This document shows, piece after piece, positions 7,720-62,990 of a DNA stretch of 64,000 nucleotides (positions within the stretch are counted from its first letter, which is position 1; every line of letters starts with the position of its first letter). The stretch is taken from IMG/VR virus record IMGVR_UViG_3300017649_000004. The stretch is one strand, 5' to 3'. Below the pieces are notes generated by a model. That model saw only the letters and a program-made list of their open reading frames with translations. It was not told the origin of the DNA and did not search any database. The position numbers and the translations under genes were made by a program. This DNA is from a virus. Its lineage: Duplodnaviria > Heunggongvirae > Uroviricota > Caudoviricetes.

Positions 7720-7793
7720 CCCAAGCGAGAGCGCGCTATACGTCATAGCGCGCATTTTTCGCGTCTTATAGTGTAAGTAAGCGCATACTTAGG
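7720..7793 (+). promoter_or_regulatory. promoter-like CCCA-N10-CGCTATA box plus GTAAGTAAG-loop-ACTTA hairpin
   Basis: CCCAAG, then 10 nt, then GCGCGCTATA (also the terminator arm). CTTATA plus GTAAGTAAGCGCATACTTAGG ends 8 nt before the ATG at 7801. Confidence 0.45.
7731..7759 (+). terminator. rho-independent terminator
   Basis: Perfect palindrome GCGCGCTAT-acgtc-ATAGCGCGC followed by ATTTTTC, 12 nt after the stop of the 6988-7719 gene. Confidence 0.6.
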
Positions 7794-7800
7794 AAACGTC

Positions 7801-9123
7801 ATGTCTGAGACGGAAGCGCAATTCGAGTTCGACCCTGCATTTCAGCGCAAAATCGCTTCGCTGTTCCTGCGGGACTCGCAATTCGCGATCAAAACCAAAG
7901 ATCTGATCAAGCCGGAGTATTTCACCGAGCAGGCTGTCGGCACGATGGTTCGCGTCGTGCAGAACCACCTTCAGGTCTACAAGACGATCCCGGATCTGCG
8001 CATTCTGCCGACCGTCCTCAAGGACGAGATCACGGCCAAGCGTATTCGCACCGACCAGATCGGCGAGGTTCGCGACTTCATCAAGGAAGCCGTGTCGGCC
8101 GACCTGTCGAACCCCGATTATGTGGTCGACAAGGTGGTCACCTTCGCAAAGCGTCAGGCGATCGAGCAGGCAATGATCGAGTCCCTGCCGCTCCTCGACA
8201 AAGGTCAGTTCGACAAGATCGCCGAGATTATGAAGAAGGCGACCTCTGTCGGGCTCCTGGTCGACGATGAGGACTACGACTACTGGGCGGAAATCGAGAA
8301 CCGAACCAAGGAGCGTAAGGACTACGACGACGGCAAGGTCGTGCGCGACGGCATCACGACCGGATATTCGGGCATCGATGCGCACCTCTACCACCTCGGA
8401 TGGGGTCGCAAGGAGCTTTCGTGCATCATGGGCGCTGCGAAGGCCGGTAAGTCGATGTCCCTTGGTGACTTCGGCCGCAATGCCTCGCTCGCCGGCTACA
8501 ATGTCCTCTACATCACGCTCGAAGTCGGCAAGAAGATCATCGCCGATCGTCTCGACGCGGCAAACGCCGACACGCTCATGCGTGAGCTTATCAAGGATCA
8601 CGCGGCGGTCGATCGCGCGATCAAGGCGCTGGCAGCCAAGAACACTGGCCGCTTTCACATTCGCGAGTTCGCGTCCGGCACCTTCAAGCCGTCGGCGCTC
8701 AACCGGCTGATCGAAAGCTATCGCGCCAAGGGCATCATCTTCGACCTGATCATTGTCGACTACGCCGACATCATGGCCGCGGAGTATCGCTCGGACTCGC
8801 TCCAGGAGAACCTGCGCACGATCTACGTGGACCTTCGCGCGCTCGCCTTCGAGCACAATGTCGCGATGCTGACTGCCACGCAGACGAACCGTGAAGGCGC
8901 AAAGGCCGCGACGGCCAAGGCAACCGACGTCGGCGATGACTGGAACAAGGCACGCACGGTCGACATCCTCATCGGCATCAATGCGACTGAGGCTGAGAAG
9001 AAGGCCAATGAGGCGCGTCTGACCTGGCTGCTGTCGCGTAACACCGAAGATGGCTTCTCCCTGCGCATCAAGCAGGATCGCCAAAAGATGAAGTTTTTGA
9101 CCAAAATCCTGGGCAAAGTCTGA
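7801..9123 (+). CDS. DnaB-family replicative DNA helicase
   Basis: RecA-like C-terminal domain: Walker A 'GAAKAGKSMSLG', 'IIVDYADIM', and 'LTATQTNREGAKAA' (DnaB/T7 gp4-like motifs). Confidence 0.75.
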   Translation: MSETEAQFEFDPAFQRKIASLFLRDSQFAIKTKDLIKPEYFTEQAVGTMVRVVQNHLQVYKTIPDLRILPTVLKDEITAKRIRTDQIGEVRDFIKEAVSADLSNPDYVVDKVVTFAKRQAIEQAMIESLPLLDKGQFDKIAEIMKKATSVGLLVDDEDYDYWAEIENRTKERKDYDDGKVVRDGITTGYSGIDAHLYHLGWGRKELSCIMGAAKAGKSMSLGDFGRNASLAGYNVLYITLEVGKKIIADRLDAANADTLMRELIKDHAAVDRAIKALAAKNTGRFHIREFASGTFKPSALNRLIESYRAKGIIFDLIIVDYADIMAAEYRSDSLQENLRTIYVDLRALAFEHNVAMLTATQTNREGAKAATAKATDVGDDWNKARTVDILIGINATEAEKKANEARLTWLLSRNTEDGFSLRIKQDRQKMKFLTKILGKV

Positions 9124-10232
9124 TGGCTCGCATCACGTTCGAACAGGTTGAGGAAGAGCTTGATCTGGAGTTCTTCCTCGAGCGGGAGTCCGTCTCGTTC
9201 AAGGTCACGCGCGGCGTCAACGGCGTGCAGCTGAACATTCGCACCTGCCCGTTCTGTCACGACGCTCGCTGGCGCACTTATTTCGGCGTCGATACCGGCC
9301 GCGGAAACTGCTTCGTGTGCTCGCGCGGCTTCAACAAGGCGAGCTTCATCCACGCCTACTATGACCACCAGAGCTGGCGCGATACGTGGGTCGAGATTGA
9401 AGCGATCCTGCGCGATCAAGGCTGGCGGCCGAAGCGAAAGGCTGTCGTTGCCGTCGATCATGGTGACATTCAGCTTCCGGTATCCGATCCCCTGCCCCTC
9501 GAGGACGGTTCGAACCTCGCCTATCTCGAGCAGCGCGGCTTTTCGGGCGAGATCGCCGAGTATTTCAAGCTGCGCTGGTGTCAGTTCGGCTGGTGGCGCT
9601 ACCGGGACGAGGAAGGCAACTGGCAGAACCAGAATTTCGCCGATCGCATCATCATCCCCGTCTATGACCTCGATGGAACGCTCAAGACGTTCCAGGGCAG
9701 AGACATCACCGGCACCAGCAAGTCGAAATACCTTTTCCCGAAGGAGCTGCCCGGCACTGGCCGCTACCTGTTCAACGGTCAGAACGTCATTGCGACGGAT
9801 CACGTTGTGATGGGTGAAGGTGCGTTCGACGTTGCAGCGATCAAGGTGGCGTTCGATGAGGACGCACAGCTGCGGCACGTCGTGCCGATTGGATCGTTTG
9901 GCAAGCATCTGTCTTACGGCTCGACGCAAGGCGACGACCAGCTTGGCCGGTTCGTCCAGCTAAAGGCGCGCGGGGTCAAGTTCGTCACGCTCATGTGGGA
10001 CGGCGAGGAAAAGGCGCTGGTGGCCGCGCTCGATGCAGCAAAGCTTCTGGCCGGCATTGGCCTGACGGCGCGGATCGCGCTGCTGCCCTACGAGAAAGAC
10101 CCCAATGAAGTCACCCCGGGCGTTGTGCGTGCGGCCTTCTACAAGGCTGAGCCGTGGAGCTCTGCGCTCGATCTGAAATGGCGGATGCGTAACCCCTACA
10201 GCGAGCGGGAACGCGCGCGTCTCGGGTTGTAA
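9123..10232 (+). CDS. DNA primase (zinc ribbon plus TOPRIM)
   Basis: Zinc ribbon 'CPFCHDARW...GNCFVCSRGF'. TOPRIM-like 'VVMGEGAFDVAAI'. Translationally coupled to the helicase (TGATG). Confidence 0.75.
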   Translation: MARITFEQVEEELDLEFFLERESVSFKVTRGVNGVQLNIRTCPFCHDARWRTYFGVDTGRGNCFVCSRGFNKASFIHAYYDHQSWRDTWVEIEAILRDQGWRPKRKAVVAVDHGDIQLPVSDPLPLEDGSNLAYLEQRGFSGEIAEYFKLRWCQFGWWRYRDEEGNWQNQNFADRIIIPVYDLDGTLKTFQGRDITGTSKSKYLFPKELPGTGRYLFNGQNVIATDHVVMGEGAFDVAAIKVAFDEDAQLRHVVPIGSFGKHLSYGSTQGDDQLGRFVQLKARGVKFVTLMWDGEEKALVAALDAAKLLAGIGLTARIALLPYEKDPNEVTPGVVRAAFYKAEPWSSALDLKWRMRNPYSERERARLGL

Positions 10233-10312
10233 GTAAGAATTAACTTAATCCACGCGCTTCCAATGCGCGTCTCGCTATAACTGAAGCAAGTGCAGAGCTG
10301 AGGATCAACTAA

Positions 10313-14676: not shown

Positions 14677-14870
14677 AAATTTTTAACCACAACCGCATCG
14701 ATCGTTGCACGCCACGGCTGTAGGCAGCGGCGCGGGTTCGACTCAGCGGCGCCCAGTAAGTATGCGCTAATTTACATTCCCACAAGAGCAGCGCTATATG
14801 TGAGTCACAGCGCAAGCGATTTGCGGTTAAGAGCGACAAAACGCATTCAGAGGAACGCTAAGGAACGAAT
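14677..14870. promoter_or_regulatory. divergent switch region between the RHH and XRE regulator genes
   Basis: Contains direct repeats CCACAA-N10-CCACAA, the near-palindrome TGTGA-G-TCACA, and a GCGCTATATG box, all within 194 bp. Confidence 0.45.
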
Positions 14871-15377
14871 ATGAGCGAAGCACAGGGGCGCCCCGAGAAA
14901 GACAACGAAATCGGCCGGTTCATCGAAGGACGGATGAGTCAGCTTGGCCTCACACAGCGTGAGGTTGCGGATATCGTCGGCTTTAAGAACCGCAATATGC
15001 TCTCATTCATCAAGAACGGCGACGGCAAGCTCCCACTTGAGCGCGTTGCCGGCATGGCGCGCGCGCTTAAAGTTCCAGCTTCCGAGTTGTTCGAGATGGC
15101 GCTTAGACAGCACTACTCGTCGGACACCATTGAGCTGATGAAGCAGGCGCTCACAGAGGCGTCCCTTTCAAGAGACGAGGCAGAACTCCTGGACCTGTTT
15201 CGGGTTCATGTGCCGCGCGGCAAGTTTACAGCCGACGCCCTGCGCCGGATAGCCGACGAGATGGAAAAGACTGGCAAAGACCAGGCGGTCGAAGCGGCTC
15301 GTAAGCAACTCGCCGAGGCGGCAAGGTTCGGCCGCAGGGCCGTGCCGAATGAGGAGATCGAACCCGAAGAAAGCTGA
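14871..15377 (+). CDS. HTH XRE-family (Cro/CI-type) transcriptional regulator
   Basis: 'MSQLGLTQREVADIVGFKNRNMLSFIKNGDGKLPLERVAGMARALKVPASELFEM' is a canonical XRE helix-turn-helix. It is transcribed divergently from the RHH gene. Confidence 0.7.
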   Translation: MSEAQGRPEKDNEIGRFIEGRMSQLGLTQREVADIVGFKNRNMLSFIKNGDGKLPLERVAGMARALKVPASELFEMALRQHYSSDTIELMKQALTEASLSRDEAELLDLFRVHVPRGKFTADALRRIADEMEKTGKDQAVEAARKQLAEAARFGRRAVPNEEIEPEES

Positions 15378-15473
15378 CGAATTTATCCACCCCATGCGTC
15401 GCCAGGTTATATCTGAGGCGGCGCACTTTTACGCGTCCTTGTTGATAAGGAAGCGCTTACTTAAACCAGAAGC

Positions 15474-15674: not shown

Positions 15675-15737
15675 GCTCCAAGCGCGCTTTTTGTATCTCA
15701 AAGCGTAAGTAAACGCTTAGTTATCCGCGAGAGAGAC

Positions 15738-18086
15738 ATGAACCGTGAAATCGTAGAGCTCCGCGAAGTCATCACGAAGCTGGTGCCGCTGCTGGCTGGT
15801 CGTGGCCTCAAGGTCACGCAGCGTGGCAGCCAGGCTTACGTGAATGCTGATCCGGTCACGAAGAAGCCAGTGTCGGTCAACATTCCGAACATTTCGGACA
15901 ACGCATCGCCGGACTTCATCCGCGCGATCCAGGGCTTCATCGATCACGAAGTGGCTCATGTCCTCTACACGGACTGGAACCACTACTGCCGCGGTGCGTC
16001 TGCGGCAGATTTGAAGAAGCCGGAAGTGCAGCGCTTCATGAACACCCACAACATCGTGGAGGACACGATGATTGAGCGGCGCATGGTCGAGGACTTCCCC
16101 GGCTCAAGCCGCAATCTGTCGGACACGCGCCGCTACTTCCTTGAGCGCATCACCAAGAAGGCGCTCGAGACAGCCAAGAACGACAAGGAAGCGTTCATCT
16201 ACCTGCTCGTGCCGACCATGCGCGCGCTCGCTGGTCAGCAGGAGATGCAGGACTTCATGGATGACGGCGGCTACTGGAAGAACCCCTTCGTCAAGGGCGT
16301 GGTCGAAGGCTTGAAGCCTGACACCCTCCAGAAGCTCAAGAAGGCGCGCTCCACGATCGAGACGCTGGAGATTGCCGAAGAACTCCACGCAATTCTCTAT
16401 CCGCCGCAGCCTCCGGCACCACCCATGCCGTCGGCACCGTCCGACTGCGATGACGAGGGGCAGGACAGCGACAGCAGCTCCGGCAGCCCGAGCTCCTCGA
16501 AGAAGAGCAAGGACAAGCCCGAGAAGAAGGCTGACGAGGGTGATGGCGACGGTGAGCGCGATCACCAGGAGTCAGGCGAGGAGGGCACGTCCAAGGACAA
16601 GAAGGGCAAGAAGGACAAGTCGAAGAAGGACGACAAGTCCGACGAGGAGAAGGAGGAAGGCGCTGGCGACAAGGGCGATGACGAGGACGCCCGCGACGGC
16701 GAGGAAGACGAGGACGGCGAAGGCGGTGATGCCGGCGACGATGATGGCGAGTCTGACGCCGGTGACGAGGGCGAGGAGGAAGACGACGACAAGGGCAAAG
16801 ACAAGGGCTCTGACGGCGACGAGGAAGAAGGCGGAGACGACGAGGGCGAAGGCTCCGGCGGCGAAGGAGACGATGAGTCTGAGGACGCCGATGAAGGCGG
16901 CGATGATGAGAACGGTGAGGATGGCTCTGGAGCGCCCGGCAAGTCCGGCGACAAGGGCGGTGACTCCGACGAGGAAGGAAAGAAGAAGGCACCGGAAGTG
17001 ATCACCGAAGGTGCTGACGGTGGCGGCGTTGGTGAAATGAACGGCGACGACACCGAAAACTCTCCTGGTGGCGGCGTCAGCAACGACGAAGGTAAGAGCC
17101 TGTTCGACTTCGATGACGATGCCTTCGAAGAAGCGGACATGAGCAAGCAGATCGCGATCCTCATCTCCGACGAAGCCGTCGAAGCGATGGATCCTGCCGA
17201 ATACCTCGTCTACACGCGCGAGTTCGACCGGATCGAGCCCGTCAACGTGCCTGACAAGATGGATTCGACCTGGGTGCCGAAGATGGAAGAGGAAGTGCGT
17301 CTGACGAGCGGCCGCTTGCAGAAGGACATTGAGCGGATGCTCGCCTCGCAGTCGCACGTCATCCGCACGCCTGGTCACAAGAAGGGCAAGCTACATGCGC
17401 CTTCGCTCTATCGCGTGATGCAGGGCGATCCGCGCGTGTTCACGCAAAAGCAGGAGCATGTGTCGAAGGACACGGCAGTGACCCTTCTGTGCGACAACTC
17501 CGGCTCTATGGGCGGTGCCAAGATGAAGCTCGGCATGATTTCGTCCTACGCGCTGGCGGTCACGCTCGAACGGGTCAAGATCAGCTACGAAGTGCTCGGC
17601 TTCACCACCGGCAACTTCTCGCGCATTCCCAACTCGATCCTCGAAGCGATGCAGGACGAAGTGGCAAAGACCGGTCTGCGATACGATCGGATCGAGCCGA
17701 TCAACATGCCGATCTACAAGGACTTCGATGAGCGGCTCGATGCGCGCGTAAAGGCGAGGTTCGCTTACATGATGTTCGCGCAGCGCGGTCTGAACGGCAA
17801 CATCGACGGCGAGTCCCTCGAATATGCTGCCATGCGCCTGATGAAACGCCCTGAAAAGCGCAAGGTGATGATCGTGCTGTCTGATGGTCAGCCTGCCGGA
17901 TCCTGGCGCTCCGGGCCTCACCTCAAGACGGTGGTCGAGCGCCTCAACAAGACGGGCATCGAGACCGTCGGCATCGGCATCATGGATCGCTCCGTGGCGC
18001 GCTACTACGACAAGCATGTGGTCATCACCAAGCTCGACGACCTGCCGGGCAGCGTCATGGGCGAGTTGAAGCGCATTCTGACGTAA
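15738..18086 (+). CDS. cobT: CobT-like vWA-domain protein with a hyperacidic D/E/G-rich linker
   Basis: C-terminal vWA MIDAS motif 'LLCDNSGSMGG'. There is a ~250-aa acidic low-complexity tract in the middle. Partnered with the downstream CobS-like AAA+ gene. Confidence 0.75.
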   Translation: MNREIVELREVITKLVPLLAGRGLKVTQRGSQAYVNADPVTKKPVSVNIPNISDNASPDFIRAIQGFIDHEVAHVLYTDWNHYCRGASAADLKKPEVQRFMNTHNIVEDTMIERRMVEDFPGSSRNLSDTRRYFLERITKKALETAKNDKEAFIYLLVPTMRALAGQQEMQDFMDDGGYWKNPFVKGVVEGLKPDTLQKLKKARSTIETLEIAEELHAILYPPQPPAPPMPSAPSDCDDEGQDSDSSSGSPSSSKKSKDKPEKKADEGDGDGERDHQESGEEGTSKDKKGKKDKSKKDDKSDEEKEEGAGDKGDDEDARDGEEDEDGEGGDAGDDDGESDAGDEGEEEDDDKGKDKGSDGDEEEGGDDEGEGSGGEGDDESEDADEGGDDENGEDGSGAPGKSGDKGGDSDEEGKKKAPEVITEGADGGGVGEMNGDDTENSPGGGVSNDEGKSLFDFDDDAFEEADMSKQIAILISDEAVEAMDPAEYLVYTREFDRIEPVNVPDKMDSTWVPKMEEEVRLTSGRLQKDIERMLASQSHVIRTPGHKKGKLHAPSLYRVMQGDPRVFTQKQEHVSKDTAVTLLCDNSGSMGGAKMKLGMISSYALAVTLERVKISYEVLGFTTGNFSRIPNSILEAMQDEVAKTGLRYDRIEPINMPIYKDFDERLDARVKARFAYMMFAQRGLNGNIDGESLEYAAMRLMKRPEKRKVMIVLSDGQPAGSWRSGPHLKTVVERLNKTGIETVGIGIMDRSVARYYDKHVVITKLDDLPGSVMGELKRILT
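16440..17110 (+). repeat. GAC/GAG/GGC-rich low-complexity coding repeat (CobT acidic linker)
   Basis: Runs of gacgag/gaagac/ggcgat codons that produce long mirror ORFs on both strands. Confidence 0.6.
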
Positions 18087-18198
18087 GAAAATGTCAGTAT
18101 GGGCTTACTTTCCCTATAGACTCCCAAACTCGATGTAAGTAAGTTCTTCATTACTAGAGCGCAGACGCGAGCGCTTAGCACACAAGAGGGAATTTCAC

Positions 18199-19461
18199 AT
18201 GACGGACACTGCTCTCGTCGCCGACAACGCGTCGGCGGCCACCGCCACTGTTGCGACTCCTGATGACGGCAAGATCGTTTGCCAGCTCGATGGTGTTCGC
18301 TGCCACATCATTCAGACGCACCTGCGCGACCATCATCCGAACTACACGATCGAGGACTATATCCGCGATTATCCGGATGCTCCGCTCATGTCGCCGACGG
18401 CTCTGGCGATGAAGGAGAAGCGCGAGAAGGAGCTGGCTGCCAAGAAGGCGGCTCAGGCAGCGGCCGCACCAGCAGGTGCCCAGGCAGCGCTCGTCACTGA
18501 AAGCGTTGGCGCAGCTTCGCTCGTTGCCAAGAACGAGCTGTTCCATGAGGTCTTCGAACTCGGCAATGCGCCGGCGGCGATGAACTCGATGGGCAAGCCA
18601 ATCCCTTGCACCGTGTTCACCGGTCACGACCACCTCTCGCGCGACTATCTGGCAGAGGTCGATAAGGCCTATGTGTTCAACATCGACCTGCTCAAGAAGG
18701 TCATGGTGGGCTTGCAGCTCAACATTCCGATCTATCTGTGGGGTATGCACGGCACTGGTAAGACGACCGTGCTCGAACAGGCAGCTGCGCGCACTCGCCG
18801 GCCGTTCCTGCGCAACCAGCACACCATCAACATGCAAGAGTCCGACGTTCTCGGACAGTGGACCGTCAAGGATGGCTCCACGCAGTTCCAGCTCGGGCCG
18901 CTGCCGATGGCGATGATCCACGGCTGGGTCTACTGCGCCGACGAGTATGACTTTGCCATGCCGTCCGTGACCGCGCTCTACCAGCCGGTGCTCGAAGGCA
19001 AGCCGCTGCTGATCAAGGAAGCGCCGGCAGAGTTCCGCAAGATCGAGCCGCATCCGAACTTCCGCTTCTGCGCAACCGGCAACACGAATGGCGGCGGTGA
19101 CGAGACTGGCCTCTACCAAGGCACGCTGGTGCAGAACGCGGCGAACTACTCGCGCTTCGGCATCACCGAAGAAGTCAAATACATGGAGCCGGCGCTCGAG
19201 GAGAACGTGATTTGCGCCAAGACGCGGATCAGCAAGTCGGATGCTTCGAAGATCGTCCGGTTCGGCAACGACATTCGCAAGGCCTTCGGTGAAGGCAAGA
19301 TCAGCGCGACCGTCTCGCCGCGTGAGTTGATCTGCGCCGCTCGCCTGGGTGTCGCATTCGGCGGCAACTGGAAGATGGGCCTTGAACTTGCCTTCGGTAA
19401 CCGCCTCTCGCGCATCGATCGCAAGACCGTCGAGCAGTATCTCCAGCGGATCTTCCCGTAA
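18199..19461 (+). CDS. cobS: CobS/MoxR-like AAA+ ATPase
   Basis: Walker A 'LWGMHGTGKTTVLEQAA' and MoxR/CobS-type AAA+ organisation, sitting directly after the CobT-like gene. Confidence 0.75.
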   Translation: MTDTALVADNASAATATVATPDDGKIVCQLDGVRCHIIQTHLRDHHPNYTIEDYIRDYPDAPLMSPTALAMKEKREKELAAKKAAQAAAAPAGAQAALVTESVGAASLVAKNELFHEVFELGNAPAAMNSMGKPIPCTVFTGHDHLSRDYLAEVDKAYVFNIDLLKKVMVGLQLNIPIYLWGMHGTGKTTVLEQAAARTRRPFLRNQHTINMQESDVLGQWTVKDGSTQFQLGPLPMAMIHGWVYCADEYDFAMPSVTALYQPVLEGKPLLIKEAPAEFRKIEPHPNFRFCATGNTNGGGDETGLYQGTLVQNAANYSRFGITEEVKYMEPALEENVICAKTRISKSDASKIVRFGNDIRKAFGEGKISATVSPRELICAARLGVAFGGNWKMGLELAFGNRLSRIDRKTVEQYLQRIFP

Positions 19462-20096
19462 TGCAGCAAGTGAAATACCGCGACCCGAAGGAGTCGAAGG
19501 CGCAGATCCGCGCCTTCGCCTACAAAGTTCTGCGGCGCATTCATGCACTGGGCGGCAAGACCACCTCGCTTGAGGACGTCGAGCAGGAGCTTTGGATTGC
19601 CTGGTGCAAGGCGTGCGAAGCCTATGACGAGAAGGGCGGCGCAAGCTTCAAGACCTTCCTGCACATCGGCATGGTGCGTCACATCAACCGCTACGTGCAG
19701 AACAACTTCGAGCGCCTGCACGGTGAAACGGTTGCGCTCTCGCTCGAAGCACCGATGGGTGACGATGACGGCGCAACGCTCGCTGAGGCTGTTCCTGACA
19801 CGGCCGAGCGTCAGGACACGAAGCTGATCGAGGAAGACGTCAAGGAGCGCGTGATGCGCCGGCTGACGCCTCGGGCACGTCAGTTCGTCCAGATCCTGCA
19901 CGACCAGCCGATCGAGCTGGTCCGGGAGCTGGACAAGTTCAAAGAGAAGCAAAAGGTCGCGCGCGAAGTCGGGGTTCAGTTCTCCGCTCCGCGCCGCCTC
20001 ACCAGCTGGATGGTTTTCGATCTCATGGGCGCCAGCCGCACGGAGCGCACGGCGATCATGCGCGAAATCGAAGCCGTCACAAGAAAGTTCGCCTGA
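19461..20096 (+). CDS. sigma-70 family (ECF-like) RNA polymerase sigma factor
   Basis: Region-2-like 'ELWIAWCKACEAYDEKGGASFKTFLHIGMVRHINRYV' and region-4-like 'LTPRARQFVQILHDQP'. Overlaps the cobS stop (TAATG). Confidence 0.6.
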   Translation: MQQVKYRDPKESKAQIRAFAYKVLRRIHALGGKTTSLEDVEQELWIAWCKACEAYDEKGGASFKTFLHIGMVRHINRYVQNNFERLHGETVALSLEAPMGDDDGATLAEAVPDTAERQDTKLIEEDVKERVMRRLTPRARQFVQILHDQPIELVRELDKFKEKQKVAREVGVQFSAPRRLTSWMVFDLMGASRTERTAIMREIEAVTRKFA

Positions 20097-24757: not shown

Positions 24758-24812
24758 GCATCCCATTTTATTTGACGCTATAAGTAAGTCAGCGCTTACT
24801 TATAGCGCATTC
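24758..24812 (+). promoter_or_regulatory. full promoter/5'-hairpin element
   Basis: GCATCCCA - N10 - CGCTATAAGTAAG - tcagcg - CTTACTTATAGCG (12-bp perfect stem), 17 nt upstream of the ATG at 24829. Confidence 0.55.
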
Positions 24813-25098: not shown

Positions 25099-25119
25099 TC
25101 CGACAGCATCCCAACACGA

Positions 25120-25214
25120 TCTAGCTATATAGCTACGTAGCTGCATAGCTAACTACGGACTTCGAAATCACCAAGCGCAAAGCACCAAAGCACTAAAGCA
25201 CGAAAGGCAAAGCA
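25120..25214 (+). promoter_or_regulatory. unusual leader of the SSB gene: TAGCTA palindrome cluster plus (AAAGCAC)5 tandem repeat
   Basis: TAGCTATATAGCTACGTAGCTGCATAGCTA (overlapping palindromes), then CAAAGCACCAAAGCACTAAAGCACGAAAGGCAAAGCA immediately before the ATG. Confidence 0.5.
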
Positions 25215-28442: not shown

Positions 28443-28497
28443 CCCGCGTCCCCCTTCCCGTTCTGCTATATGTCTACTTGGACTGTAACAGAACGGG

Positions 28498-29344: not shown

Positions 29345-29354
29345 ACCCTTCTGC

Positions 29355-29400
29355 GACCCAAACGCTCGCGCGCTATAAGTGATCAGTCAGCACTTACTAA
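29355..29400 (+). promoter_or_regulatory. full promoter/5'-hairpin element
   Basis: GACCCA - N10 - CGCTATAAGTG - atcagtcag - CACTTAC, upstream of sbcD. Confidence 0.5.
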
Positions 29401-33396: not shown

Positions 33397-33410
33397 GTAA
33401 GAACTTACGG
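33369..33410 (+). promoter_or_regulatory. full promoter/5'-hairpin element
   Basis: AACCCC - N10 - CGCTATATGTAAGTAAG - aa - CTTAC. It overlaps the upstream stop codon. Confidence 0.5.
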
Positions 33411-33426
33411 ACGAGGGCTATATATC

Positions 33427-38470: not shown

Positions 38471-38527
38471 GCATCCCAAGTCGCTGCGCGCTATATCGTA
38501 AGTATCTACTTACTAGCGCGCAGCGCA
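38471..38527 (+). promoter_or_regulatory. full promoter/5'-hairpin element (copy 2 of the duplicated leader)
   Basis: Near-identical to 37989-38048 (GCATCCCAAGTCGCTGCGCGCTATATCGTAAGTATCTACTTACTAGCGCGCAGCGCAAAGGAGGATGAATG). Confidence 0.55.
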
Positions 38528-41143: not shown

Positions 41144-41200
41144 GCATCCCAAGCGCGCATTGCTATAACTCTAGTCGTAAGTCAGCGCTTACTAGCAGCG
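41144..41200 (+). promoter_or_regulatory. full promoter/5'-hairpin element
   Basis: GCATCCCA - N10 - TGCTATAA ... GTAAGT-cagcgc-TTACTAG. Confidence 0.5.
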
Positions 41201-41751: not shown

Positions 41752-41782
41752 CATGTCGTGAGCGCGCATGTTCCTGCCGCGC

Positions 41783-41824
41783 TCCATTCTGATGCTCGCT
41801 ATAAGTAAGCACATACTTATTCAG
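41783..41824 (+). promoter_or_regulatory. full promoter/5'-hairpin element
   Basis: CTCCA - N10 - CGCTATAAGTA - agcaca - TACTTAT, upstream of the GHKL gene. Confidence 0.5.
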
Positions 41825-45587: not shown

Positions 45588-45656
45588 CACCCACAACATG
45601 ACCATCACTTGCTGACTTAAAGTGTCAGCAAGTGATTACTTACAGGAGACAAAGAC

Positions 45657-46001: not shown

Positions 46002-46643
46002 ATGAGTGACCGCAAGAGCCACTTCATGTTCACGGCCAGCGGCCAGAAATACTGGCCGATGGAGCCGCGCAGCGAGGAGGTTGACATCGAGGTGATCGCG
46101 CATCACCTCGCCAACCAGTGCCGCTACAATGGCGCAACGCGTCATCCGAAGTTCCCGCGCCGGATCTTCTATTCGGTCGCTGAGCACTCGGTCTATGTCG
46201 CCCACTACATCGAGCACGATCTCGGTCAGCCGCAGTTCGCGCTTGAAGGTCTGCTGCATGATGCAGCCGAAGCCTACATTGGCGACCTCATTCGCCCGCT
46301 CAAATACGACGATGCCTTCCGTGAGCCGTTCTTGCGGGTGGAGCAGCGCAACGAGGTTCGGATCGCCACGCGTTTCGGATTGCAGTATCCGTTCCCGCAA
46401 GCCGTGCGCCTGGCGGACGAGGCTGTGACGGCCGCCGAGGTTCAGCAGATCATCGCTGAGACGCCGGGCGAGGACTTCAAGACCGGCTATCTGCACGATG
46501 CGGCGACCACCGCGCCGGTCAAGATCGCGATGCACCCTCCGTTCGAAGCCAAGAACCTCTTTATGAACACGTTCCGCCGGCTGATGCTGGAGCGCAGCAA
46601 GTTCCGCGCAGTCCCGCAGTCGCTTGCGCTATATTGTAAGTAA
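46002..46643 (+). CDS. HD-domain phosphohydrolase (YfbR-like 5'-deoxynucleotidase)
   Basis: 'IAHHLANQCRYNG', 'VAEHSVYVA', and 'LLHDAAEAYIGD' form the H...HD...D metal-binding set. Confidence 0.65.
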   Translation: MSDRKSHFMFTASGQKYWPMEPRSEEVDIEVIAHHLANQCRYNGATRHPKFPRRIFYSVAEHSVYVAHYIEHDLGQPQFALEGLLHDAAEAYIGDLIRPLKYDDAFREPFLRVEQRNEVRIATRFGLQYPFPQAVRLADEAVTAAEVQQIIAETPGEDFKTGYLHDAATTAPVKIAMHPPFEAKNLFMNTFRRLMLERSKFRAVPQSLALYCK

Positions 46644-46657
46644 GGACATACTAGCGA
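46611..46657 (+). promoter_or_regulatory. full promoter/5'-hairpin element
   Basis: GTCCCG - N10 - CGCTATATTGTAAGTAAGGACATACTAGCG. It overlaps the stop of the HD gene. Confidence 0.45.
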
Positions 46658-49676: not shown

Positions 49677-49713
49677 TGCAGCAGCTAGAGCCGTGGCCCC
49701 GGCTCTAGCTGCA
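49677..49713 (+). terminator. 13-bp-stem hairpin, possible terminator or processing site
   Basis: GCAGCTAGAGCCG-tggcc-CGGCTCTAGCTGC directly after the stop at 49661. No T-run. It is followed by a GCATCC box. Confidence 0.4.
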
Positions 49714-49757
49714 TCCGCTTCAACATCCGCTATATGGTAAGTAGCGACATACTTATG
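49710..49757 (+). promoter_or_regulatory. full promoter/5'-hairpin element
   Basis: GCATCCGC - N9 - CGCTATATGGTAAGTA - gcgaca - TACTTATGG. Confidence 0.5.
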
Positions 49758-50425: not shown

Positions 50426-50568
50426 TGCTGACCGACGCCACCGCTACCCTCCCCGCCGAGGAGGTTTCCGTCGAACCCAAGGAGACCGAGCACCATCCGG
50501 TCTTCCGCGACTTCATTCATGTCGGCTCGATCGACAAGTTCGCCTGATTTTTACCCAAGAGAGTAAGT

Positions 50569-50817
50569 ATGCACTTCCTGATTTCTGCCGTCACCGAGAC
50601 TGCAACTGACTGGTTGCTGCGCATCAAGGAGACGCTGCGCTGGCTCGCCGATGGAGGCTCCGACCGGGCGCTCCGGCAGTCCATCAGCGATAACCTGCCC
50701 GACCTCAGCACCTACCAGGTCGCGCTAATCCTCGGCGTTCTCGCGCTCGCCTGGGCGTTCTACGCCTGCCTGTTCCTGCACCCGGAAGACGAGCGCCGTG
50801 ATCGAGATATTTACTGA
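50569..50817 (+). CDS. small membrane protein
   Basis: 82 aa. Its start codon lies inside the loop of an AAGT-atgc-ACTT hairpin. Confidence 0.4.
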   Translation: MHFLISAVTETATDWLLRIKETLRWLADGGSDRALRQSISDNLPDLSTYQVALILGVLALAWAFYACLFLHPEDERRDRDIY

Positions 50818-51244: not shown

Positions 51245-51437
51245 GGCGGTCGAGCCGATCAGAAGCATCTCCTTCATCCCCGGAACGAGTCGCGTTCGCA
51301 TTCGTTGGCGTAACGGCTTCAACCGCGAGCAGCGCATTGCCTTCCTCGAACAGCTGAAGGTTCAGGTTCGCAATGAGCTGGTCGTGGAGAAGATGCAGAG
51401 CTACCTGGAGGAGCCGGAAATGGCCCTCTCCCCGTAA
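51237..51437 (+). CDS. hypothetical small protein
   Basis: 66 aa. ATG overlaps the rnhA stop (ATGTCTGA). Confidence 0.4.
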   Translation: MSEAVEPIRSISFIPGTSRVRIRWRNGFNREQRIAFLEQLKVQVRNELVVEKMQSYLEEPEMALSP

Positions 51438-51664
51438 ACCTGCACGACTTTGTTGGCTGTTCCTTTGCAGGAATAGCAGAGCTCCTGGCACTTGGAGCTG
51501 CACAGAAGGCGCGCAACCTCATCACGCGTCGGCTTCTTCGAGGCAGTCAGGAGCTTGAGCCCCACGAACATGGCCGTTTGGGGCGACAGGACGGTGTTCT
51601 TACGCGCGTTCGCGCGGGCAAGAAGCGCCTCACCAAGCTCAGCTTCGGTCCACGTCCTGGTCAT
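51401..51664 (-). CDS. hypothetical Cys-containing protein (minus strand)
   Basis: 87 aa with high GC3. C-terminal 'LLCSSKCQELCYSCKG'. It fills a + strand gap between 51437 and 51703. The RBS is weak. Confidence 0.3.
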   Translation of the reverse strand: MTRTWTEAELGEALLARANARKNTVLSPQTAMFVGLKLLTASKKPTRDEVARLLCSSKCQELCYSCKGTANKVVQVYGERAISGSSR

Positions 51665-51906: not shown

Positions 51907-51964
51907 AACCTGCCGCAGTCCAACTGCGCGCTCGCTATAGATAAAACGCAATAAATTCAATACG

Positions 51965-53365: not shown

Positions 53366-54037
53366 CTACAACGGCAAGCCTGGCGCGTTGTAGATCCAGT
53401 TCGCCATCATCTTCTCGTAGCCGGAGTTGGTCACGCTTGCCGTGATCGTTCTCCGGCTAGTTTCGGACCGCCCGGCGAACTTCCAATCCTCTTTGGTCAA
53501 TTGTGCGCCCACAACGCGGAGGAACCGGAAAGGCATGGGTGGCACCCCGTTCGCCTCATCAACCGCTCGGTTGCCGTCGAACATGATCACCATCAACCAG
53601 CAATCCTCCGCGTTGTGCCCTTGCCACGACTTGAGGTAGCGAGAGGCCTTAACCTCGATACCTTCGTTGCAGTATTGCATCGAATCGTTAGGGAACCGTC
53701 CAGCTGGAAGAAGGTCTGGGTGCCCGTTGTGGTAACGATTCTTGACGATGCCCGGGGAGTGTTTGGGCAGATTCGCGGTCATGAACTCGCCCACAATGCT
53801 GCTAAAGTTCGCGGGCATCAGCATTGTCTCTAAACGAGGTGATGCGTTCTCATGCAGCCGAACATTAACCATCTGCATGAAGCCGATGAAATCGTTCATC
53901 GCCGCGCAGATGTGTTCGATCGTCACGCCGTAAGGGATAACCGCATTTGGGTTGAAGTGCTCGATCTTTACCGGCTCAGGGTTGCAGGCTTGGAATTCTA
54001 GTTGTTCTTCTGGTGTCATCCGCTCCGCTTGCTCCAC
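53366..54037 (-). CDS. candidate type II restriction endonuclease (PD-(D/E)xK)
   Basis: 223-aa minus-strand gene convergent with and abutting the MTase. It has a PD...ExK arrangement ('HPDLLPAGRFPNDSMQYCNEGIEVK'). Confidence 0.45.
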   Translation of the reverse strand: MEQAERMTPEEQLEFQACNPEPVKIEHFNPNAVIPYGVTIEHICAAMNDFIGFMQMVNVRLHENASPRLETMLMPANFSSIVGEFMTANLPKHSPGIVKNRYHNGHPDLLPAGRFPNDSMQYCNEGIEVKASRYLKSWQGHNAEDCWLMVIMFDGNRAVDEANGVPPMPFRFLRVVGAQLTKEDWKFAGRSETSRRTITASVTNSGYEKMMANWIYNAPGLPL

Positions 54038-54094
54038 AAGTTATTACAACACTGTGATGCTAGCGGTGAACAAGACAACGTGCCAGAGGGATGA

Positions 54095-54325
54095 GTTGCG
54101 CCCAGATCGCTTGCGCTGGCGAGGGAGAAGGCCGACGCGATCCGCGAGAAGCTGGCGCGGGGAGAAGACCCGAGAGCAGAAAAGAAGCCGGCCCGCATCG
54201 TCACCTTCGCCGACTGCATGATCGACTTCCACCGGCACTTTGCGGCGTCTCGCGAGAGGGCGCTCGCCCGGCTTGAGGAGATCAGGCGGCAGATGCAGGA
54301 GGAGGAAGAGGACGAAGCCGCGTAA
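54095..54325 (+). pseudogene. tyrosine-integrase N-terminal fragment (remnant)
   Basis: A start-less frame translates to '...AREKADAIREKLARGEDPRAEKKPARIVTFADCMIDFHRHF...', resembling the integrase arm-linker region ('ARERRDEARKLLAEGIDPSEARKAEK...TFGEVAEEW' type). No catalytic domain follows. Confidence 0.35.
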
Positions 54326-54337
54326 CTTCCTCACGCA

Positions 54338-54383
54338 GCCCAAATATGTGCGCGCTATACAGTAAGTATCAGCTTACTTACGG
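54338..54383 (+). promoter_or_regulatory. full promoter/5'-hairpin element
   Basis: GCCCA - N10 - CGCTATACAGTAAGTA - tcagct - TACTTAC. Confidence 0.5.
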
Positions 54384-54394
54384 AGTGTAACACG

Positions 54395-54523
54395 ATGAAG
54401 GATCCGCTCGAGCCGCACATCAACCAGGACGGCACCGCGTTCAATGGCAACCACGCCGTGATCGCGGTGTCCGCCCTGATCGCAGTTCTCGCCGGTATCG
54501 GCGCAATCGTCAGCTTGTTCTGA
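54395..54523 (+). CDS. small TM peptide
   Basis: 42 aa, 'MKDPLEPHINQDGTAFNGNHAVIAVSALIAVLAGIGAIVSLF'. Preceded by a full promoter/hairpin element. Confidence 0.35.
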   Translation: MKDPLEPHINQDGTAFNGNHAVIAVSALIAVLAGIGAIVSLF

Positions 54524-55659: not shown

Positions 55660-55956
55660 ATGTATTTCTTCTATCCTCCGCACAGCGAGAACAAAGGCGC
55701 GCAGATCAACATTTGGAAATGGAACGGCACGAAGCAATACCTCAAGCACTACGATCAGATGCTCTACCTTCATTTCGTCCTGAAAAATCCTCGGGCGAGT
55801 GAGCAGGAAAAGAGGATCGCCAGGCACGAGATCGGCATCGCCGAAAAGAAGCTCGCCTTCTGGACCCGTCACCCGAACTTTGATGAGCAGGAGGCACAGA
55901 AGGGCGCGGAAAAGCTCAAGAAGATGTGGTTAAGCGGCGAGCGTGTCGTCGCTTAG
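55660..55956 (+). CDS. hypothetical protein
   Basis: 98 aa from ATG with RBS AAAGGAG. Confidence 0.4.
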   Translation: MYFFYPPHSENKGAQINIWKWNGTKQYLKHYDQMLYLHFVLKNPRASEQEKRIARHEIGIAEKKLAFWTRHPNFDEQEAQKGAEKLKKMWLSGERVVA

Positions 55957-56145
55957 AGGGTCGCTATAAGCGTCGGTCCCGAAGAACAGGGCCTCGACCG
56001 CCAGCTGCGCGAAGTCCGTGGAGCCTTCCTGAAGGAAGGTTTCACGGTCGAAGCTGTGGCCGGCGTTGACGCAGAACTCCTCGATGGAGTCCAGAATGAA
56101 ATCCTGCAATCGCTCCGCGACTGCCAAAAACTCGCTCCTGGTCAT
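55930..56145 (-). CDS. hypothetical small protein (minus strand)
   Basis: 71 aa, occupying a + strand gap. Plausible RBS AGGAA. Confidence 0.3.
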   Translation of the reverse strand: MTRSEFLAVAERLQDFILDSIEEFCVNAGHSFDRETFLQEGSTDFAQLAVEALFFGTDAYSDPLSDDTLAA

Positions 56146-56369
56146 TTGTGTTCCTGTTTTGTTCTCTCCGGAATAAATTCCTAGCTGCTTCGCTCGGCGC
56201 CGGCAACAGGATTCTCGACCCGCTCACAACCCGCGTCAGACCCAAGCTGACGCGCGCTATAAGTGACATGTGAGTAAGACGAGCAAAGGAGATAGCTAGA
56301 CGATTACATAGCTAGATAGCTATATCATGCTCCGATCTTCCGTTTCTGAAATTGCCTGGGAGCATGATG

Positions 56370-57497: not shown

Positions 57498-57758
57498 ATG
57501 AACAGACTGAGGCTTGAATTTGCGACCCTCGGGTTCCTCTCGGAGATGCGCAAACAGTTCGCCTTGCTGCACCCCGACAAGGAATGCCCGATCGGCAGCT
57601 TCGAGGAATACTCCCCGGAGCAGCGGTCTGCCCTGATGGCGGCCGTCCAAAAGGCGATCAAGTTCGGCGCCGACGAAAGTGACGCCCTCTTCATCCAGTG
57701 GCGCCAGCGCCGGGAAGAGCAAGCCGCGCAATCTTCCGACAGCAGTCCACTACAGTAG
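57498..57758 (+). CDS. hypothetical protein
   Basis: 86 aa from an internal ATG. Confidence 0.4.
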   Translation: MNRLRLEFATLGFLSEMRKQFALLHPDKECPIGSFEEYSPEQRSALMAAVQKAIKFGADESDALFIQWRQRREEQAAQSSDSSPLQ

Positions 57759-57803
57759 TCGCTATAACGTAAGTATGCACTTATTGACGGAGCATACTTA
57801 TGG
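57744..57803 (+). promoter_or_regulatory. full promoter/5'-hairpin element
   Basis: AGTCCA - N10 - CGCTATAACGTAAGTATGCACTTA ... AGCATACTTATGG. The start codon is inside the distal arm. Confidence 0.45.
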
Positions 57804-58712: not shown

Positions 58713-58743
58713 GCCCGGCGGACGGCGAGCAATCGCCGAGCTC

Positions 58744-58796
58744 GGCCCACGCTTTCGCTCGTTATAACGTGTAAGTAAGCGCATACTAAGGAGGGT
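58744..58796 (+). promoter_or_regulatory. full promoter/5'-hairpin element
   Basis: GGCCCA - N10 - CGTTATAACGTGTAAGTAAGCGCATACTAAGGAGG. Confidence 0.45.
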
Positions 58797-58991: not shown

Positions 58992-59236
58992 GCACCAACA
59001 AGCGCCGTCGCGAAATCATGGCTTTCGCGAAAACCCTTTGTCCTGACGCTCGTATGGAAATGTCAGGCGACAACCATCTGCGCGTCATCTTTACCGGGCC
59101 GCTCGGGACCAGGAAGGTTCACCTGTCCCTGACCCCATCGGACCATCGTGACGCCAAGAACAGCCGACGCGACATGCTCCGCGCTGCGCGCACCGTCGGT
59201 CTCATCCCCGCGAACGACTCCAGAAAGGAGGGCTGA
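58988..59236 (+). CDS. hypothetical small protein
   Basis: 82 aa, ATGA overlap. Confidence 0.4.
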   Translation: MSTNKRRREIMAFAKTLCPDARMEMSGDNHLRVIFTGPLGTRKVHLSLTPSDHRDAKNSRRDMLRAARTVGLIPANDSRKEG

Positions 59237-60097: not shown

Positions 60098-60169
60098 AAG
60101 CGCTGTCCCCTGCGTAAGCCCATATTTTTCAATGCTAAATTCTACACAGTGAGAACAGGAGTAGTCTTG

Positions 60170-61730: not shown

Positions 61731-61834
61731 GGCGCCGCGTCCCGCGAAGGCCGTCTCCTTTCGAGGAGGCGGCTTTTCTTTTGGCCGAACGAATCCCACG
61801 GTCGCCCGTTCTACCGGCTGTTGGAGTCGGTTCG

Positions 61835-62152
61835 ATGAGTAATCAGTGGTGGTCGCGTCCCGTCCACGTCGCCGTGAGCAACGGCACCTCGGTGGTGGTC
61901 AATAACAACCGCCTTGCCGCGGAAATGCTCCTGAAATGGCCGCTGGAAGGCTCAGAGAAGGCCGCCTGGGCCCGGCGCGCTACCCTGCGCTCCATGGAAC
62001 GTCCTGACGATCCTGGGCCTCTCCTGTCGGCGCAAATGTGGTTCGAAGCGGCCGCCGAGGAGGCAGGGCTGCGCATGGACCCGCCACCGCCCTCCATGGC
62101 ACCCAAGACATTCAAGACACCGGTTTGGCGACGGCGGAAATCTCGCCATTAA
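61835..62152 (+). CDS. hypothetical protein
   Basis: 105 aa from an internal ATG with RBS GGAG. Confidence 0.35.
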   Translation: MSNQWWSRPVHVAVSNGTSVVVNNNRLAAEMLLKWPLEGSEKAAWARRATLRSMERPDDPGPLLSAQMWFEAAAEEAGLRMDPPPPSMAPKTFKTPVWRRRKSRH

Positions 62153-62946
62153 TCCCCAAAAGCGCACCGTTCGTTTGCGCCACCCAATGAACGATAACCT
62201 TCCATTATCGTGCATTATCCCGGCCGCGCTCCAAATCGCGCTCTGATAGATCAGAAGCATGAGAAGCGCGCACGACGCGCGAAGCGAGATGAGCGAGGGG
62301 AGAACGGACATGAGCCGTCATTTATGAATTGGAGGGTGGCTACCTCCGTAACAATAGCCCGGTCAAGAACCGTTACACATACGGAGGGAGCTCCTTCATA
62401 AGAGGCAGGCGCGTCGGGACGGTGTTGAGAAACCGGCGGCCAGGAGCTCTCCCGCCTGTCACCGCGCCCGTCAGGGGTAGTCTCGGTGAAATTTCATCAA
62501 GGGCTCGGCATTGCGCCGACCAGAAACCGCTTGAGTGCTCACAATCCCCACGGTGAGCTGGCGGAGAGCTCGGCTTGCATAGGCAGGTCGTTCGTCCCGA
62601 CCGGCGCCGTGGTGATCAATGACCACTCGTGCCGCTCCGCGGAGCTTGCTAAGGTGCAAACAGATTCGAGGGCAGAAGCAGCCGCGCCGTGCCAGCCGGC
62701 GCACCGGGAGGATGAGCCAACCCGGCTGAGGCAAAACAGGCTTTGCCCTCGAACTGGAGGTGACGCCATGTGGTTCTTTCCATTTAGCGCCGCCCTGGAG
62801 ATACGAAAAACCCGGAGCGGCTGGCTAGTGCGACTCCGGGTCAATTTCGTAATCTAGGAAACGAGGGGCAGGTTCGCGCCTGCTCCTCACTCCGGGAATA
62901 TGACCTCTCTCCCCTCCCCTTTCAAGTCCTGAATACGTTCCGTCCG

Positions 62947-62990
62947 ACATCCAACTTCTCGCTCGCTATAAGTAAATCATTACTAACAGC
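62947..62990 (+). promoter_or_regulatory. full promoter/5'-hairpin element
   Basis: ACATCCA - N10 - CGCTATAAGTAA - atca - TTACTAAC. Confidence 0.45.

Follow-up and report, generated by a model that had tools for sequence, protein, structure and literature searches.

Across a 64,000-nt stretch of DNA from a tailed virus of the Caudoviricetes (IMG/VR record IMGVR_UViG_3300017649_000004; hereafter the window), the short gaps between genes carry two recurrent motifs, a promoter motif that we call class E and an AT-rich dyad of 18-20 bp, (G)TAAGTAAGnnCTTACTTA(C). The sequence establishes their anatomy and positions, the strand bias and conservation across phages, and the dyad lacks covariation of the RNA type. 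An earlier note on this DNA had described a single promoter-plus-hairpin element; in the related phage B1VFA promoter and dyad occur independently of each other, which indicates two separable elements. The reading that we favour, tentatively and at a little under an even chance, is that two independent regulatory DNA elements share these gaps and that the dyad is an operator for a phage-encoded dimeric regulator.

The window is about 60% GC, with genes almost all on the + strand, and is syntenic with the Rhizobium siphophage B1VFA (122 kb), the best-conserved genes having about 76% nucleotide identity. RHEph10 and its relatives are more distant kin, and no close relative of the window was found in a plasmid collection. 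All of these belong to a rhizobial group of ~115-125 kb siphophages or putative phage-plasmids that includes B1VFA, V1VFA-S, RHph_X66, RHEph10 and many IMG/VR genomes. A 2025 announcement of the siphophages B1VFA and V1VFA-S, which included no regulatory analysis, noted that they resemble plasmids in some features (repC, parA, parB; PMC12509600), and the regulatory biology of the group is so far undescribed. In what follows, script-based results for RHEph10 cover its first 50 kb, and family-wide results for the dyad come from 226 unique oriented copies in the window, B1VFA and IMG/VR.

Class E has the form (T)TCC-N5-GCAnCCCA-N11-GCTATAW and is present in 23-24 copies on the + strand of the window and none on the - strand. 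A position weight matrix (PWM) built from 22 aligned sites returned 23 matches on + and none on - at a score of at least 14, compared with 0.1 in shuffled sequence, and 24 on + and none on - at a score of at least 10. The strict pattern CCCA-N9/10-CGCTATAW gave 6 matches in the window against 0.00 in shuffles, and the word CGCTATA occurs 17 times on + and once on -. The distance from CCCA to GCTATA is 11 nt in 19 of the 22 sites, equivalent to the 10 nt to CGCTATA that the earlier note had read, and 10 nt in the other three. Good copies are confined to the 12.5% of the window outside called genes, or to the last codons of a gene, and 20 of 23 lie 26-105 nt upstream of a start codon; for the sites at 28446, 56237 and 58742 the next called start is 221-463 nt away. 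The motif is thus real, as the earlier note had held, and far above chance, and it is not the plain repeat, equally dense inside open reading frames (ORFs) and on the other strand, that the note had set against its own proposal.

A profile of 75 unique class E sites from the family placed information at G-C-A (-33 to -31), Y-C-C-A-A (-29 to -25) and C-G-C-T-A-T-A-A (-15 to -8), with none at -7 and a weak CCT/TCC signal near -40. The box GCAnCCCA therefore occupies about -33 to -26 and is separated from the -10 hexamer by 13 bp, and the aligned profile contains no -35 hexamer. Published rhizobial promoters have the consensus CTTGAC-N17-CTATAT, and Agrobacterium differential RNA sequencing gave CTTGNN-N18-TATNNT (PMC3384568); the class E -10 (GC-TATAWn) agrees with this rhizobial consensus, which bears out the identification of CTATAW as an alphaproteobacterial -10. 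The class E matrix found 22 sites on + and none on - in B1VFA, all at 0.4-31 kb and 81-122 kb, among early and replication genes, and absent from 31-81 kb. A scan of related phages, as the earlier note had advised, recovered class E and the dyad in B1VFA and in IMG/VR relatives; RHEph10 has weaker class E versions (CCCA-N11-GCTATT) and a variant dyad. Co-orientation with genes and intergenic placement support treating class E as a promoter family, the activity of which we infer from sequence.

Promoters of the host type are scarce in the window. A scan for sigma-70 promoters of the E. coli kind gave 4 matches where ~13 were expected, and the host-type pattern CTTG-N19-21-TANNNT was depleted, with 0 matches against 6.05 expected. 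The same pattern is enriched in the structural region of B1VFA (45-80 kb), where 13 matches compare with 2.75 expected and no shuffle reached 13, and is at chance in the B1VFA early and replication regions. The early and replication regions seem to avoid host-type promoters, and since the window has none, class E would have to work from the onset of infection, unless some factor enters with the DNA.

Class E would accordingly be a phage-specific promoter class driving early, replication and nucleotide-metabolism genes. Region 2 of host sigma-70 may read the -10, and the -30 box would be read by something other than the normal region 4/-35 contact, perhaps a phage activator or an ECF-like (extracytoplasmic function) phage sigma factor. 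A similar arrangement is known from T4 middle promoters, where the MotA box lies 12 +/- 1 bp from the sigma-70 -10 (PMC2988021): they too combine a host-type -10 with no -35 hexamer and a phage box near -30, 12-13 bp from the -10, and they too drive replication and nucleotide-metabolism genes. The comparison with 'middle' promoters made in the earlier note thus holds, as a matter of geometry only. Unlike T4, where the box is TGCTTtA, the box here is GCAnCCCA, and there is an additional box near -40. No match to MotA or AsiA was found among the ~40 window proteins scanned with Pfam or PHROGs, a set that includes a minority of the small proteins. Class E apparently provides every promoter of the early region, and the label 'middle' may therefore not apply to it.

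One candidate reader of the -30 box is encoded in the window itself. The gene at 19461-20096 (+) predicts an ECF-like sigma factor (Pfam Sigma70_r2; phrog_351; TIGR02937 sigma70-ECF over residues 18-147) with region 2 and a region-4-like C-terminus, and in all three phages class E promoters stand upstream of it. It is the last gene of 15738-20096, where a single operon, conserved in 3/3 phages, encodes a CobT-like von Willebrand factor A (VWA) protein, a CobS/CbbQ-like AAA ATPase and this sigma factor. No phage RNA polymerase was found among the scanned window proteins or in the 1205-aa protein of B1VFA. A phage polymerase with a T7-like 'TATA|G' start was rejected as the reader of these sites; the large B1VFA protein proved to be beta-helix plus immunoglobulin-like, and the large window ORFs are CobT-like, AAA, DNA polymerase III (Pol III) alpha and rIIA/rIIB. 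Also rejected was a scheme in which TAAGTA is the real -10 and CCCA its -35, as the distance from CCCA to TAAGTA varies over 13-20 nt, whereas that from CCCA to GCTATA is fixed.

The class E sites, all on the + strand, are spread along the window. Toward its start are class E-like sites at 6938-6962 (GTTATAT, within a GC hairpin with a T-rich tail, the terminator-like hairpin 6934-6955; PWM 16.8), 7716-7741 (-10 in the 5' arm of the terminator-like hairpin 7731-7753; 23.9), 10255-10280 (without a downstream dyad; 21.2), 14775-14799 (upstream of a gene for an HTH_3 protein; 18.8, gap 10) and 15387-15412 (upstream of the cobT/cobS/sigma operon; 14.4). These are followed by class E sites at 24758-24783 (-10 overlapped by a dyad; 24.5) and 25106-25130 (upstream of the gene for a gp32-like single-stranded DNA-binding protein, SSB, matching Pfam gp32; 28.0), a class E-like site at 28446-28471 (17.6), and class E sites at 29353-29378 (with a variant dyad; 29.8), 33367-33392 (in the last codons of gene 33073-33396; 21.3), 37989-38014 (31.9) and its duplicate 38471-38496 (32.5), 41144-41168 (26.9, gap 10), 41779-41804 (upstream of a rIIA-like gene, PHROG rIIA; 27.8) and 46609-46634 (in the last codons of gene 46002-46643; 20.2). 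The remainder are at 49711-49735 (class E-like; 14.3), 51915-51940 (no dyad; 27.3), 54335-54360 (27.5), 56237-56262 (degenerate dyad; 24.8), 57742-57767 (29.0), 58742-58767 (GTTATAA; 19.5), 60115-60140 (class E-like, GCTAAAT, no dyad; 18.4) and 62946-62971 (28.3). The copy list of the earlier note lacked the dyad-less promoters at 6938, 10255, 14775, 15387, 25106, 28446, 51915 and 60115, and against its at least 15 copies with the full architecture our count is 13-14.

Several of these sites have unusual surroundings. GC-rich, terminator-like hairpins with a T-rich tail are nested in the class E promoters at 6934-6962 and 7731-7753, where the -10 is the tail or the 5' arm of the hairpin and the same bases serve terminator and promoter. 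The segments 37989-38031 and 38471-38513 are near-identical promoter-plus-dyad duplicates about 480 bp apart, each before a small gene and sharing an identical 22-nt CCCA...GCTATAT match. Runs of ATAGCTA/TAGCTA stand directly 3' of the -10 at 25124-25160 and 56301-56335 in the window and at 105092-105130 in B1VFA; one of these runs precedes the gp32-like SSB gene, and B1VFA keeps the pattern.

The dyad can be written by its arms as (G)TAAGTAAG-nn-CTTACTTA(C), and as double-stranded DNA it reads TAAGTAAGCACTTACTTA. About 22 copies, with or without a promoter, are present in the window, where TAAGTA-N6-TACTTA with up to 2 mismatches gave 26 overlapping matches against 0.07 in shuffles. Good dyads, like good class E sites, are found only between genes or in the final codons of one. 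GTAAGTA occurs 16 times on + and 3 times on -, and all three - copies are the other arm of perfect dyads. B1VFA has ~45 TAAGTA-N6-TACTTA dyads genome-wide, including the structural region, one upstream of a tRNA cluster and one at a minus-strand promoter, and a scan of IMG/VR for the exact 18-mer recovered 79 loci, several of them on ~120 kb genomes. The TAAGTA-type dyad is absent from the part of RHEph10 analysed, where a related dyad, GTCAGTCAAT|ATTGACTGAC, occupies the same kinds of site with its symmetry kept, implying that specificity is set by phage lineage and not by host. Between phages whose genes are only ~76% identical the dyad sequence is exact, and its flanks carry no general information content, suggesting selection on the 18 bp themselves. 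Dyads are more frequent in divergent than in convergent intergenic regions (30 vs 6), which ties them to promoters or 5' ends and not to 3' ends.

The two elements have no fixed order. A promoter may precede a dyad by 0-35 nt or may follow it, and a dyad may also stand before a GC hairpin or terminator, or alone. B1VFA also has tandem dyad pairs at 54257-54409, 59078-59220 and 66229-66410, which lie in a divergent region and upstream of the genes for a terminase small-subunit-like protein and the major capsid protein. In its late region CAAT(A/T)GGG and a GC hairpin come after several dyads, an arrangement also seen in RHEph10.

Window dyads are given here without strand. The first, GTAAGTAAGCATTTACTTCC at 18-37, has no class E visible, being at the window edge, and the second, at 6096-6119, is a variant with a 10-nt centre, 3 nt past the stop of 5023-6093. 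The dyad at 7773-7792 ends 9 nt before the start codon at 7801 (predicted RNA fold -3.7 kcal/mol), and that at 10229-10248 (-1.8 kcal/mol) holds the stop of 9123-10232 in its 5' arm and has a promoter between itself and the next start. Further dyads are TAAGGAAGCGCTTACTTA at 15445-15464 and a copy upstream of the cobT-like gene at 15705-15724, where the predicted RNA fold does not use the dyad; two degenerate copies (18083 and 18135, together 18083-18157) precede the cobS-like gene. A variant with a 10-nt centre at 24780-24803 covers the -10 of promoter 24758 and pairs into GCTATA (fold -20.1 kcal/mol including the -10), and a variant of the form TAAGTG-N9-CACTTA is at 29376-29396. At 33393-33412 the 5' arm holds the stop of 33073-33396, and at 34815-34834 (-5.5 kcal/mol) a dyad without a promoter is followed by a GC hairpin upstream of the gene for ribonucleotide reductase (RNR) beta.

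In the duplicated locus the dyads at 38016-38031, with flanks GCGCGCTA/TAGCGCG, and 38498-38513 both have a 2-nt centre. A variant, GTAAGTCAGCGCTTAC, is at 41177-41192, and dyads cover the -10 of promoter 41779 (41801-41820) and of promoter 62946 (62968-62987). The copy at 46636-46655 has a weak 3' arm and the stop of 46002-46643 in its 5' arm; a further dyad is at 49737-49756, and a weak copy at 50563-50580 has the start codon 50569 in its centre. A perfect dyad with 7-bp arms is at 54362-54381 (-7.2 kcal/mol), a dyad with alternative short and long pairings at 57769-57801, and one with a mismatched 3' arm at 58771-58790, where the predicted fold does not use the dyad.

Most of the 26 hairpins that the earlier note had listed are recognisable dyads (~20), those at 18083, 18135, 46636, 48773, 50563 and 56270 being degenerate or one-armed. 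The listed hairpin at 45606 is not a family member; 45606-45645 contains a strong 11-bp hairpin of a different kind (CACTTGCTGAC...GTCAGCAAGTG), then a lone 3' arm, ATTACTTAC, and a Shine-Dalgarno sequence. As the dyad core is a palindrome, the statement that all copies are on the coding strand has meaning only for the promoter and, within the dyad, for the stronger conservation of its upstream arm. Where the note had 8-30 nt from element to start codon, we measured 9-31 nt from the end of the 3' arm in most window copies; the distance is ~60 nt at 6096 and 34815, and at 10229 a promoter intervenes. A start codon, 50569, does lie in the loop of a hairpin, albeit a weak one.

Two placements of the dyad relative to promoters are strongly enriched in the sense orientation. 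Across the family class E stands immediately upstream of 36 dyads in sense and of none in antisense, and in 32 of these 36 promoter-linked copies the start of the dyad falls within a span from 3 nt ahead of the end of GCTATAA to 5 nt past it, so that the dyad covers about -10 to +8 or about -5 to +13. Measured from CTATAW, the G of GTAAGTA is 0-1 nt downstream in 8 window copies, and in 3-4 others it overlaps the -10. Orientation assigned by coding potential and by promoters agreed in 61/62 cases.

A second type of promoter carries the dyad internally. In the arrangement TTGnnn-n-[TAAGTAAGnnnnTTACT]-TAnnnT, typically gCTTGCAAg...TACAAT, we found 25 dyads in sense and 1 in antisense. Read as CTTGCA-N18-TACAAT, this is by sequence the Agrobacterium/rhizobial sigma-70 consensus, with the dyad filling the 17-bp spacer and supplying the first 2 bases of the -10. 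Such spacer dyads precede the portal gene and a tail gene, and also follow the major capsid gene, in B1VFA, where 5 of the 7 + strand host-type matches in the late region carry a dyad in the spacer or directly after the -10, among them the promoters of the capsid gene and of a ParB-like gene. RHEph10 holds its own dyad in the equivalent spacers, TTGGCA-N17-TACCAT and TTGATG-N17-TACCAT.

These positions bear on the proposal of the earlier note that transcripts begin with a GUAAGUA hairpin. A sigma-70-type start, at the 7th base after the hexamer, falls at the end of the 5' arm and leaves at most 1-2 bases of that arm in the RNA; by geometry alone, the arm begins at -10 to -3 relative to such a start in 32/36 promoter-linked copies. 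As the 5' arm is upstream of the expected start in most of these copies, a 5'-terminal hairpin is not supported. Stabilising stem-loops at 5' ends, such as those of the E. coli ompA leader and the T7 gene 10 leader, must be stable and within a few nt of the 5' end. The elements described here share with them a stem-loop near a promoter and upstream of a ribosome-binding site, and differ from them in their weak stems and in an arm that for the most part lies ahead of the expected start.

A broader RNA interpretation is that the dyad is a stem-loop of 5' untranslated or intercistronic RNA that protects against 5'-end-dependent decay by RNase E/RNase J, is a site that a phage nuclease or RNA-binding protein processes or binds, or couples translation of neighbouring genes, and we regard this as a serious rival, though less likely than the operator. 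It would account for the co-orientation of dyads with genes, their location directly 5' of Shine-Dalgarno sequences (in most window copies 9-31 nt before the start codon), an upstream arm conserved better than the downstream one, and pairing that is kept despite a variable centre. Genes are nearly all co-directional, so read-through transcripts would hold the whole element, and the TAA of the 5' arm is the stop codon of the upstream ORF in 60/226 copies. Against these must be set the 32/36 promoter-linked copies with the 5' arm ahead of the expected start, 25 copies located wholly upstream of the start in promoter spacers, and one B1VFA copy upstream of tRNA genes. The stems are AT-rich and weak, with fold energies of -1.8 to -7.2 kcal/mol (z -0.5 to -3) and 2 copies that do not fold as the dyad; stable folds (-17.6 to -20.1 kcal/mol), which count in favour of RNA, occur only where the stem takes in the untranscribed -10. 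Stem sequence is conserved and the loop variable, the reverse of most protein-bound RNA hairpins.

Patterns of substitution point the same way. At the six core pairs of the 226 copies there were 28 wobble pairs versus 30 A:C mismatches and 105 transversion mismatches, only 1 of the 63 two-mismatch copies was compensated, and the promoter-oriented subset had 9 wobble pairs versus 6 A:C. An RNA-like wobble excess noticed by eye in the window alone (~5-6 vs 0 A:C) vanished in the larger set. Rfam returned no match at gathering thresholds, and the dyads do not resemble intrinsic terminators, having no U tract and none being picked up by a terminator scan of the window. An RNase III site was rejected because the stems are too short, save in 3-5 window copies. 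Should the RNA model be true, it would describe an unusual sequence-conserved stem read by a phage factor.

The closest known architecture is the promoter early stem-loop (PeSL) cassette of the T4-like phages RB49 and phi1 (PMC2839356, PMC4122927), which also has many intergenic copies of a promoter with an inverted repeat, located in the -35/-10 spacer, over the -10 or just downstream; its authors speculated that the stem-loop is the target of a DNA-binding protein. By analogy, the elements described here might be cassettes that insulate transcription units and provide homology patches for modular shuffling, with no dedicated binder and a uniformity maintained by recombination or gene conversion, an explanation that we consider unlikely. 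Apart from the matching placement of the repeats, the two window promoters with nested GC hairpins and T-rich tails, the near-identical duplicate at 37989/38471 and the many small genes of unknown function flanked by copies would fit it. PeSL stems, however, are strong, GC-rich hairpins that terminate in vivo, while the dyads are weak, AT-rich and without a U tract; moreover, an exact dyad kept across ~76% identical genes between uninformative flanks indicates selection on the 18 bp, and the RHEph10 variant retains dyad symmetry. PeSL promoters are strong sigma-70 consensus early promoters, whereas here the early class has a -30 box and no -35 and the sigma-70-type promoters are on structural genes, in relatives; host and phage group also differ.

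A promoter function for the dyad itself seems very improbable. In this scheme the upstream arm, TAAGTAAG, would be a -10-like octamer (compare T4 TATAAATA) read by the phage sigma, making the dyads late promoters; the upstream arm is indeed the better conserved one, the phage encodes a sigma, the arm-to-start-codon distance of 28-50 nt suits a promoter, and no motif other than the dyad recurs among the structural genes of B1VFA. A one-sided element leaves unexplained that the downstream arm is almost equally conserved in B1VFA, and the arm lies at -28 to -21 in spacers and at -10 to +3 at class E. Several dyads directly precede terminators, and the region-4-like C-terminus of the sigma would lead one to expect a -35 partner.

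An operator agrees better with these observations than an RNA structure does, since an 18-bp sequence is conserved around a varying centre, is lineage-specific and shows no pairing-specific evolution, and since its registers vary yet stay within the polymerase footprint of two promoter classes. Because the position within the core promoter is variable, occlusion, that is repression, is suggested rather than activation. From sequence we infer the following scheme, including the binding, the binder and the sign of regulation. The dyad would be read as double-stranded DNA by a phage-encoded dimer, with dyads placed inside or against core promoters, over the -10 and start at class E and in host-type spacers or after the -10 in relatives, and further dyads at intercistronic junctions. 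Once bound, the protein would keep RNA polymerase off the DNA and could also obstruct read-through, the intercistronic copies serving as roadblocks much like stoperators (PMC9283540). The outcome would be genome-wide silencing in a plasmid-prophage state, or early/late timing.

The candidate dyad binder is an Xre/Cro-type helix-turn-helix protein encoded at 14871-15377 (+; Pfam HTH_3, E=2.4e-8). Its gene adjoins the divergently transcribed repC region, is syntenic in the window, B1VFA (as B1VFA_128) and RHEph10, and has a dyad upstream of its own promoter. The predicted recognition helix is G(Y/F)(K/S)(N/S)(Q/P/R)NM(I/L)(T/S)(M/F) in 7 phages with the TAAGTA dyad (5 from IMG/VR, B1VFA and the window) and GWTQSNMVTM in 5 IMG/VR loci with the RHEph10-type dyad, including RHEph10 itself. 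Other candidates were set aside: the minus-strand ORFs 53366-54037, 54044-54343, 51401-51664 and 55930-56145 and three in B1VFA, considered as repressors, had no Pfam or PHROG matches, and for the host factors integration host factor (IHF) and CtrA, or a parS site, no consensus match was seen by eye and the dyad differs between phages of one host genus.

A number of observations weigh against the operator interpretation. The upstream arm is conserved ~4x better than the downstream one (single-mismatch copies 9 vs 32; upstream versus downstream mismatches in promoter-oriented copies 9 vs 35), an asymmetry that a symmetric dimer site would not predict unless the -10 and upstream stop codons constrain the arm; overlap with the -10 and the stop codons may explain part of it. 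In the window the centre varies in length (2, 6, 9 or 10 nt) with complementarity kept, which fits a hairpin better than a fixed dimer site, and 5 copies pair on into their flanks, CGCTA...TAGCG, which speaks for single-stranded folding. For about 70% of family copies we could recognise no adjoining promoter. Were GCTA the true -10 of class E, with an ECF-like sigma reading it and a start ~6 nt on, a transcript in the '+2' register could begin at the arm, though still not in the overlapping register. Host-type promoters on structural genes together with phage-type promoters on early genes make an odd temporal logic, and the sequence link between HTH_3 protein and dyad type rests on two lineages and is a lead, not a test.

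The fullest version of the operator proposal, which we hold to be possible, though less likely than not, is that one dimeric regulator reads 20-45 dispersed 18-bp operators, some over the start sites of class E and others, in relatives, within the spacers of host-type structural-gene promoters, silencing a 120-kb plasmid-prophage or timing early and late expression (for example, by being titrated as the genome replicates), while the early and middle genes would use a -30-box mechanism analogous to T4 sigma appropriation with unrelated components. Dispersed operators have precedents in phiC31, where conserved inverted repeats accompany conserved early promoters, and in P1, which has C1 operators and, in its Lpa-dependent late promoters, a palindrome at about -22. 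Each of these large temperate phages or phage-plasmids carries one short, conserved and often palindromic site at many of its promoters, and in phiC31 the repeat is likewise paired with a phage-specific conserved promoter class; their sequences are unrelated to the dyad. In Cluster A mycobacteriophages, dozens of copies of one short site of the L5 gp71 type also lie in intergenic gaps, co-oriented with transcription, some at promoters and many inside operons, and the repressor bound to these stoperators represses initiation and stops elongation (PMC9283540). Stoperators differ in being asymmetric sites of 13-14 bp bound by a monomer, whereas the dyad is symmetric and its binder only a candidate, and lysogeny of the rhizobial phage group is only suspected. 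By analogy, dispersed repressor sites would be the best functional counterparts of the dyad.

Searches of the available literature for the motif words, for rhizobiophage promoters or palindromes and for regulatory repeats of this phage group returned nothing relevant, and the repeat, which is highly non-random, is apparently undescribed; in kind it belongs with known conserved phage promoter cassettes that have an embedded inverted repeat or operator. The layout is unusual and testable, with a -30-box class on early genes and operator-bearing host-type promoters on the structural genes of relatives, and together these elements supply a regulatory map consisting of a phage promoter class, host-type structural-gene promoters, a dyad touching both and a candidate regulator gene. 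If true, the operator model would explain the silencing or timing of such a large element and offer portable promoter/operator parts for Rhizobium.

The genes of the window begin with those at the tail-fibre end, followed by primase/helicase, ligase and a minus-strand repC, and then the CobT/CobS-like pair and the sigma factor. Others encode Pol III alpha, the gp32-like SSB, RecA, RNR, ThyX, dUTPase and rIIA/rIIB, along with numerous small genes. For a 223-aa ORF on the minority strand (53366-54037, -), over 3,400 homologues are spread across metagenomes and a very wide variety of bacteria, among them a 100% identical copy on 27 contigs; the ORF has no Pfam or PHROG family and looks like a widely travelling accessory gene. 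Next to it, at about 54100-54325 (+), an open frame without a start codon resembles, by eye only, the N-terminus of a P4-type tyrosine integrase (AREKADAIREKLARGEDPRAEKKPARIVTFADCMIDFH) and may be a gene remnant.

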